64,000 nt of DNA from Escherichia coli (GTDB taxonomy: Bacteria > Pseudomonadota > Gammaproteobacteria > Enterobacterales > Enterobacteriaceae), in NCBI RefSeq assembly GCF_044647545.1, contig NZ_CP172818.1. One strand, written 5' to 3'. A program made the position numbers and the translations under genes. The notes under the pieces were generated by a model that worked only from the letters and a program-made list of their open reading frames with translations, had not been told where the DNA came from and made no database searches. How positions within the stretch are numbered: the stretch's first letter is position 1; each line of letters begins with the position of its first letter. Positions 2,200-8,520 of this stretch are shown one piece after another.

Positions 2200-3455
2200 G
2201 TGTCGCAAGATAACAACTTTAGCCAGGGGCCAGTCCCGCAGTCGGCGCGGAAAGGGGTATTGGCATTGACGTTCGTCATGCTGGGATTAACCTTCTTTTC
2301 CGCCAGTATGTGGACCGGCGGCACTCTGGAACCGGTCTTAGCTATCATCAATTCTTTCCTCGCAGTTCTCATCGGTAATCTTCTCCTCGGTATTTACACT
2401 TGATTTCTCGGTTACATTGGCGCAAACCGGCCTGACCACTCATCTTCTTGCTCGCTTCTGGTTTGGTGTTAAAGGCTCATGGCTGCCTTCACTGCTACTG
2501 GGCGGAACTCAGGTTGGCTGGTTTGGCGTCGGTGTGGCGATGTTTGCCATTTCGGTGGGTAAGGCAACCGGGCTGGATATTAATTTGCTGATTGCCGTTT
2601 CCGGTTTACTGATGACCGTCACCGTCTTTTTTGGCATTTGGCGCTGACGGTTCTTTCGGTGATTGCGGTTCCGGCTATCGCCTGCCTGGGCGGTTATTCC
2701 GTGTGGCTGGCTGTTAACGGCATGGGCGGCCTGGACGCATTAAAAGCGGTCGTTCCCGCACAACCGTTAATTTCAATCTCGCGCTGGCGCTGGTTGTGGT
2801 CATTTTCTGGTGGGTACGCTCGCCGCTGGCGCCTTTTGTCCGGTTTGGTCGCAATGCCAAACTGGCGGTGCTGGTGGCGATGGTGGCCTTTTTCCTCGGC
2901 AACTGGTTGATGTTTATTTTCGGTGCAGCGGGCGCTGCGGCACTGCGCATGGCGGATATCTCTGATGTGATGATTGCTCAGGGCCTGCTGCTGCCTGCGA
3001 TTGTGGTGCTGGGGCTGAATATCTGGACCACCAACGATAACGCACTCTATGCGTCGGGTTTAGGTTTCGCCAACATTACCGGGATGTCGAGCAAAACCCT
3101 TTCGGTAATCAACGGTATTATCGGTACGGTCTGCGCATTATGGCTGTATAACAATTTTGTCGGCTGGTTGACCTTCCTTTCGGCAGCTATTCCTCCAGTG
3201 GGTGGCGTGATCATCGCCGACTATCTGATGAACCGTCGCCGCTATGAGCACTTTGCGACCACGCGTATGATGAGTGTCAATTGGGTGGCGATTCTGGCGG
3301 TCGCCTTGGGGATTGCTGCAGGCCACTGGTTACCGGGAATTGTTCCGGTCAACGCGGTATTAGGTGGCGCGCTGAGCTATCTGATCCTTAACCCGATTTT
3401 GAATCGTAAAACGACAGCAGCAATGACGCATGTGGAGGCTAACAGTGTCGAATAA
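2200..3455 (+). pseudogene. codB: cytosine permease, frame-disrupted
   Basis: GTG start at 2200 with upstream SD; N-terminus MSQDNNFSQGPVPQSARKG. Gene is split into four ORF fragments (2200-2403, 2417-2647, 2638-2910, 2796-3455): premature TGA 2401-2403 and frame changes near 2404-2430, ~2636 and ~2770. Confidence 0.8.
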
Positions 3456-4728
3456 CGCTTTACAAACAATTATTAACGCCCGGTTACCAGGCGAAGAGGG
3501 GCTGTGGCAGATTCATCTGCAGGACGGAAAAATCAGCGCCATTGATGCGCAATCCGGCGTGATGCCCATAACTGAAAACAGCCTGGATGCCGAACAAGGT
3601 TTAGTTATACCGCCGTTTGTGGAGCCACATATTCACCTGGACACCACGCAAACCGCCGGACAACCGAACTGGAATCAGTCCGGCACGCTGTTTGAAGGCA
3701 TTGAACGCTGGGCCGAGCGCAAAGCGTTATTAACCCATGACGATGTGAAACAACGCGCATGGCAAACGCTGAAATGGCAGATTGCCAACGGCATTCAGCA
3801 TGTGCGTACCCATGTCGATGTTTCGGATGCAACGCTAACTGCGCTGAAAGCAATGCTGGAAGTGAAGCAGGAAGTCGCGCCGTGGATTGATCTGCAAATC
3901 GTCGCCTTCCCTCAGGAAGGGATTTTGTCGTATCCCAACGGTGAAGCGTTGCTGGAAGAGGCGTTACGCTTAGGGGCAGATGTAGTGGGGGCGATTCCGC
4001 ATTTTGAATTTACCCGTGAATACGGCGTGGAGTCGCTGCATAAAACCTTCGCCCTGGCGCAAAAATACGACCGTCTCATCGACGTTCACTGTGATGAGAT
4101 CGATGACGAGCAGTCGCGCTTTGTCGAAACCGTTGCTGCCCTGGCGCACCATGAAGGCATGGGCGCGCGAGTCACCGCCAGCCACACCACGGCAATGCAC
4201 TCCTATAACGGGGCGTATACCTCACGCCTGTTCCGCTTGCTGAAAATGTCCGGTATTAACTTTGTCGCCAACCCGCTGGTCAATATTCATCTGCAAGGAC
4301 GTTTCGATACGTATCCAAAACGTCGCGGCATCACGCGCGTTAAAGAGATGCTGGAGTCCGGCATTAACGTCTGCTTTGGTCACGATGATGTCTTCGATCC
4401 GTGGTATCCGCTGGGAACGGCGAATATGCTGCAAGTGCTGCATATGGGGCTGCATGTTTGCCAGTTGATGGGCTACGGGCAGATTAACGATGGCCTGAAT
4501 TTAATCACCCACCACAGCGCAAGGACGTTGAATTTGCAGGATTACGGCATTGCCGCCGGAAACAGCGCCAACCTGATTATCCTGCCGGCTGAAAATGGGT
4601 TTGATGCGCTGCGCCGTCAGGTTCCGGTACGTTATTCGGTACGTGGCGGCAAGGTGATTGCCAGCACACAACCGGCACAAACCACCGTATATCTGGAGCA
4701 GCCAGAAGCCATCGATTACAAACGTTGA
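3445..4728 (+). CDS. codA: cytosine deaminase
   Basis: GTG start at 3445 ([14 protein letters not shown]...), 427 aa, 11-bp overlap with codB end; amidohydrolase motifs (HIHLD). Confidence 0.9.
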
Positions 4729-4750
4729 ACGACTGGGTTACAGCGAGCTT

Positions 4751-5150
4751 AGTTTATGCCGGATGCGGCGTGAACGCCTTATCCGGCCTACGTAGAGCAC
4801 TGAACTCGTAGGCCTGATAAGCGTAGCGCATCAGGCAATTCCAGCCGCTGATCTGTGTCAGCGGCTACCGTGATTCATTCCCGCCAACAACCGCGCATTC
4901 CTCCAACGCCATGTGCAAAAATGCCTTCGCAGCGGCTGTCTGCCAGCTGTAGTTTATGCCGGATGCGGCGTGAACGCCTTATCCGGCCTACGTAGAGCAC
5001 TGAACTCGTAGGCCTGATAAGCGTAGCGCATCAGGCAATTCCAGCCGCAGACCTGTGTCAGCGGCTACCGTGATTCATTTCCGCCAACAACCGCGCATTT
5101 ATCCAACGCCATGTGCAAAAATGCCTTCGCGGCGGCTGTCTGCCAGCTAT
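4751..5150. repeat. 200-bp direct tandem duplication (two copies, ~96% identical) containing REP-like palindrome and the 3' end of cynR
   Basis: Copy 1 at 4751-4950 and copy 2 at 4951-5150 align base-for-base with ~7 mismatches; copy 2 overlaps the last ~86 bp of cynR. Confidence 0.8.
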
Positions 5151-5964
5151 TTTTCCGCCGCAACAAAACCGCCGTTCTCTCCAGTAGTGGCGGGGCAAGA
5201 GAAATAGCTTTAAGCCCGTCATGTTGTGTGGCAATCGCTGCTGGTAACAATGTGGAAAGGGAAGTGCGGCGAATCAGCTCCAGAACCGCGCTAATTGAGT
5301 TCGCCTCAATGACCACCTGTGGATGTAGCCCCGCTTTCTCGCAGTAGTGGTCAATTTGCTCTCTGGTGGCAAATTCCGCGCTGAGCAGGACCAGTTTTTC
5401 ATCATGCAAGCGACTCAACGCCACCTGTTCATGGACGGCCAGCGGATGATGTTGCGCCACGACTAACGCTAAACTTTCTGTCAGTAAAGGAATTGCCTCC
5501 AGCTCCGGCGAATGCACAGGCGCGAAGGCAATCCCAACGTCCAACTCGTCGCGGCAAAGCATATCCTCGATTTTCTCCTGCGACATTTCCTGTAGCTGGA
5601 GCGTGATGCTGGGATAGCGCGCATAGAAATCCGCCATTAAGGGGCCGATAAAGTAGCTCGTAAAGGTGGGGGTGACGGCGATACGCAGCGATCCTCGCGT
5701 CAGATCGGCAACATCATGAATCGCCCGTTTACCCGCCCCCAGTTCCTGTAACGCCCGGCTGGCGTACTGTCGCCAGACTTCTCCTGCATCAGTGAGACGA
5801 ATCGTTCGCCCGCTACGGTCAAACAGCGGCACGCCTAAACTCTCCTCTAACTGGCGAATCTGCTGGGAAAGCGCAGGTTGGGAGACGTGCAACGCACTGG
5901 CGGCACGGGTGAAGCTGCCATGTTCAGCCACGGCAAGAAAATAATTGATATGTCGAGAGAGCAT
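5065..5964 (-). CDS. cynR: LysR-type transcriptional regulator of the cyn operon
   Basis: 299-aa ORF starting [40 protein letters not shown] (LysR HTH), divergent from cynT. Confidence 0.9.
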
Positions 5965-8420: not shown

Positions 8421-8520
8421 TGCGACGCTTGTTCCTGCGCTTTGTTCATGCCGGATGCGGCTAATGTAGATCGCTGAACTTGTAGGCCTGATAAGCGCAG
8501 CGTATCAGGCAATTTTTATA
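8421..8520. repeat. REP-like palindromic element between cynX and lacA
   Basis: GCCGGATGCGGC / GCCTGATAAGCGCAGCG palindromic units. Confidence 0.5.

Follow-up and report, generated by a model that had tools for sequence, protein, structure and literature searches.

The window, by which we mean the whole 64-kb stretch of Escherichia coli DNA that was analysed, is from E. coli K-12 and contains codA and cynR as convergent genes with a 336-bp spacer between them. In MG1655 these genes lie at 356171-357454 and 357791-358690, respectively. The region from 4600 to 5300 of the window (701 nt) is 100% identical to W3110, and a 491-nt stretch at the spacer is the same in W3110 and MG1655.

An earlier note on this DNA had described a 200-bp tandem duplication that places a copy of the cynR 3' end in the spacer, and its description was borne out by two repeat finders and by direct comparison of the copies. 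Tandem Repeats Finder reported an array at 4746-5148 with a period of 200, 2.0 copies, 96% matches, 0% indels and a score of 755, and a gap-free repeat finder paired 4750-4948 with 4950-5148 at 97%. Direct comparison resolved two 200-bp units (U1 and U2; Table 1), which lie head to tail and are identical at 193 of 199 positions without indels; the six internal differences fall at unit positions 100, 103, 131, 151, 152 and 182, to which the boundary base has to be added. A 199-nt match at 97% identity excludes chance, and this array was the sole tandem repeat within the 64-kb window that reached a score of at least 80. The coordinates first given for the array (4751-5150) and the estimate of about 86 bp for its match to cynR were right to within 1-2 nt, the measured match being 84 nt, and the proposal that only the second copy is part of the real gene also held, since cynR overlaps U2 alone.

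Table 1. Parts of the codA-cynR region, with positions in the window
Feature	Position	Strand	Basis and remarks
codA (cytosine/isoguanine deaminase)	3445-4728	+	stop TGA 4726-4728; left neighbour; ORF list and mapped W3110/MG1655 RefSeq annotation
Unique left flank, codA stop to repeat	4729-4748	no strand	alignment, flank table
U1, non-functional copy: BIME, perfect hairpin and cynR pseudo-tail	4749-4948	no strand	repeat finders, unit comparison
Y-type REP of U1, inverted (iREP)	4758-4791	+	exact pattern match; ends CTAC (4788-4791)
Linker between U1 REPs, 16 nt	4792-4807		
Z2-type REP of U1	4808-4836	+	pattern match; begins GTAG; head-to-head BIME with Y REP
U1 hairpin (24 nt), AGCCGCTGA-TCTGTG-TCAGCGGCT	4843-4866	no strand	perfect stem
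cynR pseudo-tail in U1: last 27 codons and stop, without upstream gene body	4865-4948	-	sequence translation, PGAP
Duplication junction ...CTGCCAGCT|GTAGTTTATGCC... (T|G; CAGCT|GTAG)	4948-4949	no strand	zero microhomology
U2, terminal copy; last 84 nt are the true cynR 3' end	4949-5148	no strand	repeat finders, ORF list, annotation
Y-type REP of U2	4958-4991	+	exact pattern match
Z2-type REP of U2	5008-5036	+	pattern match
U2 hairpin (24 nt), AGCCGCAGA-CCTGTG-TCAGCGGCT	5043-5066	no strand	one A.A mismatch; 2-nt overlap with cynR TAG stop
cynR (LysR-type regulator of cyn operon), 299 aa	5065-5964	-	right neighbour; last 84 nt (5065-5148) in U2

Each unit joins a BIME to a hairpin and the end of cynR

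Both units contain the same parts in the same order: a Y REP, the 16-nt linker, a Z2 REP that starts with GTAG, a 24-nt hairpin and 84 nt of the cynR end, which correspond to 27 codons plus TAG. The earlier reading of one REP-like palindrome per unit was therefore right in recognizing REP sequence but not in its architecture, as each unit carries two inverted REPs, which form a BIME, and a separate hairpin. We take these REPs to match the Y and Z2 types of the Gilson/Bachellier consensus. The Y REP pattern has two exact copies in the window, where none is expected, and a further Z2 REP is found at 8482-8510. Between U1 and U2 of K-12 the BIME part is 100% conserved, and the CTAC foot that ends the Y iREP and the GTAG foot that begins the Z2 REP are found likewise in unit 2. 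This arrangement of two inverted REPs with a short linker in both units agrees with the definition in PMC3333891, under which a BIME combines inverted REP palindromes, 30-40 nt long, a short linker and GTAG 5' of the palindrome foot. The absence of a long L linker bearing an IHF site disfavours BIME-1. A query containing the BIME had a median of 21-39 matching places per E. coli genome, and the element is thus present in dispersed copies.

About 101 of the 200 nt of each unit are non-REP sequence, the 84 nt of cynR included. The pseudo-tail in U1 is annotated by PGAP as 'hypothetical protein; incomplete; missing N-terminus' in W3110 and in many other genomes, and the small ORFs inside the repeat, which span 25-46 aa (46 aa being the longest), are unsupported by-products of the duplicated tail and the REPs. 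An Rfam scan of 4500-5400 at a permissive threshold gave sub-threshold matches to the REP-derived naRNA4 (39 bits vs a gathering score of 59.5); these reflect REP homology, and a distinct RNA gene in the spacer was rejected.

The number of units varies among E. coli genomes

The comparison of copy number across E. coli genomes that had been proposed in the earlier note was run on 5,426 complete genomes and identified a variable-number locus with no BIME or with 1, 2 or 3 units. This collection is skewed towards many laboratory K-12 derivatives and clinical clones, so that the allele percentages given here are not natural frequencies. The counts were obtained with synthetic three- and four-unit queries and with a REP-free query, BLAST coverage being confounded by non-collinear pieces and REP matches, and base-by-base reading covered about 25 alleles.

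In the allele without a BIME (strain 504211), the spacer has 39 bp and contains the hairpin only, while in one-unit alleles (O157:H7, OW1E2, 0H24, 22AR0750) it measures 132-146 bp. The two-unit allele, with the 336-bp spacer of K-12, is also carried by many natural isolates and accounts for about 25% of the genomes in this collection. B2 strains such as NU14 lack cynRTSX entirely, an absence from B2 strains that was previously described (Touchon et al. 2009). A 799-nt synthetic query built as flank-U1-U1-U2-flank matched at 100% and in one piece in at least 30 genomes, and strains 4/2-1 and 167 were verified as three-unit, their 536-bp spacers holding U1, U1 and U2. Three-unit alleles, about 3% of the genomes examined, are exactly U1-U1-U2 and mark a set of clinical genomes. 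Among the 5,426 genomes there was no four-unit allele, the best match of the four-unit query being a two-unit genome. When 60 evenly spaced ranks of the four-unit query search were sampled, 15 were two-unit, 2 three-unit, 10 one-unit and 17 without BIME, and in the other 16 cynR was absent or the row was a partial match or a plasmid record.

The REP-free query (4838-4949) identified 3,840 genomes with the cynR tail and 5,549 places in total, and every sampled row with at least 99% identity had two or three places. From this query, multi-unit genomes number roughly 1,500-1,590 (about 28% of all genomes in the collection and about 40% of those bearing cynR), of which some 150-210 have three units. 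The two-unit locus occurs a second time in a 242-kb record of XL1-Blue (NZ_CP132549.1), probably an F' episome, and this copy probably accounts for the genomes with four tails and for 16 plasmid matches.

A further, rarer class, with a period of 186 bp, comprises 24 records, E. coli C included, with two units each. Both units carry the same 14-nt deletion (TCCAGCCGCAGACC), which removes the left arm of the hairpin and is also found in O157-type single-unit alleles. In the three loci of this class that were read, among them E. coli C, the tails of the two units differ at 9 sites and their BIME parts share the private variants 21A and 35T, a pattern that is a sign of concerted evolution within the array. 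A search of the GTDB representatives, with one genome per bacterial species, returned 0 matches to the junction pattern, but the E. coli representative may carry another allele.

Unit haplotypes point to one duplication followed by homologous reshaping

The junction CAGCT|GTAG is the same in all multi-unit alleles read (16 or so), and the sequence of a unit depends on its place in the array. Inner units that keep the hairpin are all 100T/103T, the terminal units and single-unit alleles read are all 100A/103C, and most inner units carry the synonymous 182A. The six differences between K-12 U1 and U2 divide into three that belong to inner units (100 and 103, in the hairpin, and the synonymous 182) and three that belong to the tail haplotype (131 and 151-152). 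The single unit of Ec-U9-1, whose sequence is also that of U2 in strain 510016, lies midway between the two K-12 units: K-12 U1 equals this unit plus 100T, 103T and 182A, and K-12 U2 equals it plus 131T and 151-152 TA. The tail variants of U2 (131T, 151T and 152A), which change ...EE... to ...DK... in CynR, also occur in the single-unit alleles 22AR0750 and DETEC-S792, and they therefore came by ordinary replacement of the cynR end.

The base at 4749 is T in K-12 and G in most other alleles, as seen in the alignment and the flank table. In E. coli C, RM9088, EA2 and JNEC-KY208 unit 1 is preceded by G, the base also found in most single-unit and cyn-less alleles, and in E. coli C, EA2 and JNEC-KY208 the array is then an exact [G...T] x2. 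The G-type flank gives a perfect [G...T] x2 of 200 nt, and the most likely reading of the K-12 T is that it changed later. Distinct haplotypes are formed by the codA end together with the first 20 spacer nt (4720-4749): the stop is TGA or TAA, 25 nt contain 5 differences, and there is an indel of 10 nt, of the TGTGTTGACA type. This stretch is far more diverged than the adjoining, nearly invariant BIME. The last 15 residues of CynR are likewise polymorphic in E. coli, with an EE form, the DK form of K-12 and the O157 form ...ALEECADVGENESR; in K-12, the dead tail keeps the EE form and the live cynR has DK.

Changes in unit number can be followed in related alleles. OW1E2 corresponds to VG888-46E9 minus U1, and Ec-U9-1 to 510016 minus U1, flank and protein alleles included, so that single-unit alleles with the T flank are the flank plus U2 of a sampled two-unit allele, which matches the prediction for a crossover within the repeat. 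The pure-U1 middle unit of the three-unit arrays is likewise the outcome predicted for crossing-over in the first 99 nt, which are identical. In U1 of VE-V11-M, 100T/103T and 182A stand around a U2-like patch at 113-146, indicating gene conversion, and the units of BHUCD02 differ at 100/103 only. No genome of the 5,426 had the common single-unit haplotype directly before the junction, which is the form that a fresh duplication would take.

The unit number thus differs by strain while the junction is identical, as in VNTR loci, and of the roles considered in the earlier note it is the recombination or amplification scar that the comparative data favour, with their 1-3 units, their BIME-less alleles and their common junction. 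We consider it probable that the array is a strain-variable minisatellite without dedicated function, which originated in one old duplication and was then reshaped by homologous processes. Its history would have begun with the insertion of a BIME (Y plus Z2) between the codA stop and an older hairpin abutting the cynR stop, a step suggested by the BIME-less 39-bp allele. A single illegitimate, homology-independent tandem duplication of exactly 200 bp would then have copied one flank base (G), the BIME, the hairpin and the last 84 nt of cynR, generating the junction and the dead tail; the common junction and the common inner-unit markers argue for a single origin. Later, copy number would have changed by unequal homologous recombination or by slippage in the identical BIME part, with expansion leading to U1-U1-U2 and contraction to a single unit made of the flank and U2, and short gene conversions and exchange of cynR alleles between lineages may have accompanied these changes. 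Since both 186-bp units have the same 14-nt deletion, a single origin needs at least two conversion or replacement events, and recurrent formation at the same nucleotides is possible.

Hairpins, termination and function

The U1 hairpin folds with about -17 kcal/mol on either strand and the mismatched hairpin of U2 with -13.8 to -15.9 kcal/mol. Alleles without BIME or duplication already have a hairpin at the cynR stop, and in the no-BIME allele (positions 1647-1670 of locus L003) its arms read AGCCACTGA/TCAGTGGCT vs AGCCGCTGA/TCAGCGGCT in K-12. The stem has therefore been kept by a compensatory change from G-C to A-T (unit positions 98/113), which indicates that the hairpin itself probably had a use at one time. 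A perfect stem is confined to the no-BIME allele and to inner, dead units; terminal or single units that retain the hairpin all have the 100A mismatch, and in O157, E. coli C and others the hairpin adjoining cynR is half-deleted. Arrival of the BIME may have made the hairpin redundant.

Both strands of the spacer form strong structures, with minimum free energies of -145 and -149 kcal/mol (z = -6.0 and -3.9). A scan with promoter and terminator consensus patterns found no promoter-like site and, in the spacer, no stem followed by a T-run on either strand; two terminator-like sites were reported, both inside cynR, against 1.4 expected by chance. The combination of stem-loop and U-run on both strands that defines an intrinsic bidirectional terminator is thus absent from the scan results. 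A weak terminator-like site on the plus strand at 5131-5157, in the sense of codBA, lies at the repeat's right edge, slightly within the 3' end of cynR, and consists of a 5-bp stem plus AGCTATTTTT, which is at chance level. In the supplements examined of a 3'-end map of E. coli (PMC7815308), the 3' ends of codA and cynR have no entry.

The earlier note had suggested that the structure could act as a convergent terminator for codBA and cynR. This role is unsupported: besides the missing stem and T-run, the hairpin predates the duplication and is weakened or half-deleted in many strains, and there are lineages without the extra unit. Whole lineages also lack the BIME or the entire cyn operon, and it is from this dispensability across strains that we infer the absence of function. 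The effect of the extra unit is most likely nil or a redundant lengthening of both 3' UTRs; both convergent 3' UTRs would be 200 nt longer and would include a second BIME and a second hairpin, offering at most redundant 3'-end protection or termination.

It seems very unlikely, then, that the block is kept for a function of its own, whether as a reinforced bidirectional terminator, as a 3'-end stabiliser or as a doubled site for a REP-binding protein such as gyrase. The folding on both strands and the compensatory change in the stem at the cynR stop are what such a function would lead one to expect, as is the commonness of the multi-unit allele, but this last frequency is also expected from clonal over-sampling of K-12, ST10 and ST167-like genomes. 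Single-unit alleles already have each part once, and copy number drifts among 1, 2 and 3, contractions included, which together with the lack of a stem and U-tract in the spacer, the decay of the hairpin next to cynR and the silence of the examined 3'-end supplements argues against maintenance by selection. Nothing suggests an unexpected function or a new kind of element at codA-cynR.

The founding junction and its possible mechanisms

The joint reads T|G in the top strand, which corresponds to C|A in the bottom one. A duplication with zero microhomology is unusual for slippage or RecA-independent events in E. coli. With the G-type flank, the state of most lineages, the left parental breakpoint is C|G and the right one T|A; an AGC|T site is found no more than 1 nt from the right breakpoint and, in the K-12 flank, from the left one as well. 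If the nearest C|T sites were joined, in whichever strand, the period would be 199 bp and the sequence CAGCTTAG or CAGCGTAG; the observed sequence is CAGCTGTAG. Slippage on AGC/AGCT microhomology as the founding event, in its simple form, was rejected, as the period would then also be 199 bp. What founded the array is best regarded as a one-off duplication, illegitimate and independent of homology, for which gyrase-type breakage at the BIME is a possible mechanism.

The gene tnpA_REP, which encodes the REP-associated transposase, is yafM, located outside the 64-kb window. Ton-Hoang et al. (2012, Nucleic Acids Res 40:3596, PMC3333891) discuss BIME amplification by TnpA_REP and cite codA-cynR as a case in which a BIME unit has taken up a flanking gene fragment. 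According to the same paper, this enzyme cleaves strictly at C|T, cleavage has been shown more than 400 nt from the BIME, and K-12 carries tnpA_REP, the in vivo activity of RAYTs being described as undemonstrated (PMC3333891).

We judge it unlikely that the array arose in this way, that is, by a RAYT (TnpA_REP, a Y1 transposase) that bound the BIME, cut single-stranded DNA at C|T and rejoined it, with the hairpin and the cynR tail carried along. The mechanism has been suggested for this very locus, and the distant cleavage, the complete BIME in a unit that starts with GTAG, the proximity of AGC|T to the breakpoints and the single junction common to the 200-bp and 186-bp classes are all compatible with it, but the joint and the parental breakpoints contain no C|T, the period is 200 bp where C|T joining gives 199, and the repeating unit is not the BIME itself, about half of it being non-REP. 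Furthermore, the 5,426 genomes include no fresh duplication of the common single-unit allele, and the later changes in copy number are fully accounted for by homology. As the junction is not C|T, the published RAYT model is unsupported in its simple form. A broader version, in which the array is the in vivo footprint of BIME-directed breakage and rejoining, RAYT or gyrase-type, that captured the flanks and possibly recurred at the same nucleotides, is to us quite unlikely as well; a recurrent process of this kind, if true, would explain why the 200-bp and 186-bp classes share a homology-free junction, and codA-cynR would then provide a natural assay for the mobility of REP/BIME elements, so far never seen in vivo. 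Highly improbable, finally, is that illegitimate recombination after DNA transfer joined two different spacer alleles, whose copies were about 3% different at birth. The variants of K-12 U2 that are shared with the single units of 22AR0750 and DETEC-S792 could be understood in this manner, but they are explained as later imports by homologous replacement of the cynR end, the bases specific to U1 occur in no sampled single-unit allele, and some two-unit alleles are nearly identical within themselves (as in BHUCD02) or have the inferred ancestral unit as U2 (510016).

Relation to known systems

The codA-cynR structure is real, ordinary and already in the literature, and it is not a new kind of element. 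As far as its description goes, the example of Ton-Hoang et al. (2012) is the same locus and the same BIME unit with its flanking gene fragment; there the locus is offered as an illustration of possible TnpA_REP action, whereas the joint described here fails the C|T rule. New here beyond that paper are the polymorphism of 1-3 units, the 186-bp variant and the haplotype history. A literature search for the codA-cynR or cynR tandem duplication found only that study and a CAST paper in which the spacer was used as target, serving as an integration site (PMC8464060).

With BIME-2 arrays the locus shares the inverted REPs of putative Y and Z2 type, the 16-nt linker, the GTAG/CTAC feet and a tandem unit number that varies by strain. 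The repeating unit of BIME-2 is roughly 70-100 bp. According to PMC3333891 it is composed of the BIME and short s/l/r linkers only, whereas the codA-cynR unit has 200 bp, half of it non-REP (spacer, an unrelated hairpin and 84 nt of coding sequence), and its join lies outside the REPs. REP-associated chromosomal duplications are also tandem, and they too are found in enterobacterial chromosomes at REP-containing intergenic DNA. Those described by Shyamala, Schneider and Ames in 1990 (EMBO J) reportedly span tens of kb and have their join points within REPs, as products of REP-REP recombination, whereas at codA-cynR 200 bp are duplicated and the join connects cynR coding sequence to a point 9 nt upstream of a REP, without homology.

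Minisatellite or VNTR loci, such as those used in MLVA, resemble the array in their long unit, their 1-3 copies, their homologous misalignment and a stability sufficient to mark clones. They differ in that the codA-cynR unit overlaps a gene end, and consequently the terminal copy is under selection and the inner copies are not; a literature search for the repeat as a typing locus gave no match. Duplications at att sites also combine a functional gene end with a displaced dead copy nearby, but the copies of codA-cynR are directly head to tail, with no integrase and no cargo between them, and an origin of the attL/attR type from an integrated element was rejected because nothing lies between the copies.

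In practice, the dead cynR tail is a known annotation nuisance, being called as a partial 'hypothetical protein' by PGAP. Short-read assembly and primer design can be misled by the 200-bp repeat, as can work that uses the codA-cynR spacer for integration. Whether a strain has 1, 2 or 3 units could be scored by PCR as a simple marker within lineages of E. coli. The locus also illustrates how a BIME-containing spacer may evolve, through an insertion, a single illegitimate duplication and then expansion, contraction and gene conversion driven by homology, and it is one of few concrete loci at which the proposed RAYT-driven amplification of BIMEs can be tested, with a joint that breaks the C|T rule.

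Other BIME-related observations in the region

The cynRTSX genes are bracketed by two related BIMEs in the same orientation, the one between codA and cynR and another between cynX and lacA (8449-8510 of the window), which consists of a truncated Y REP and a Z2 REP. NU14, a B2 strain without cynRTSX, has a single BIME between codA and lacA (positions 3150-3245 of its locus, L007); the left side of this BIME resembles the codA flank, and its linker and right side resemble the cynX-lacA BIME. Judged by its sequence, this arrangement suggests that cynRTSX may have been lost or gained by recombination between BIMEs.

In three genomes (strain 1500, H231 and H233), IS621, a member of the IS110 family that is known to target REPs (PMC1525189, PMC11208160), is inserted in the Y REP of unit 2 (...CTTATCTGGCC|TTGTATTATCC...). 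In strain 1500, the site lies at about 697-740 of locus L019, and the REP-free query for the cynR tail matches this record in one place, the pseudo-tail of unit 1.
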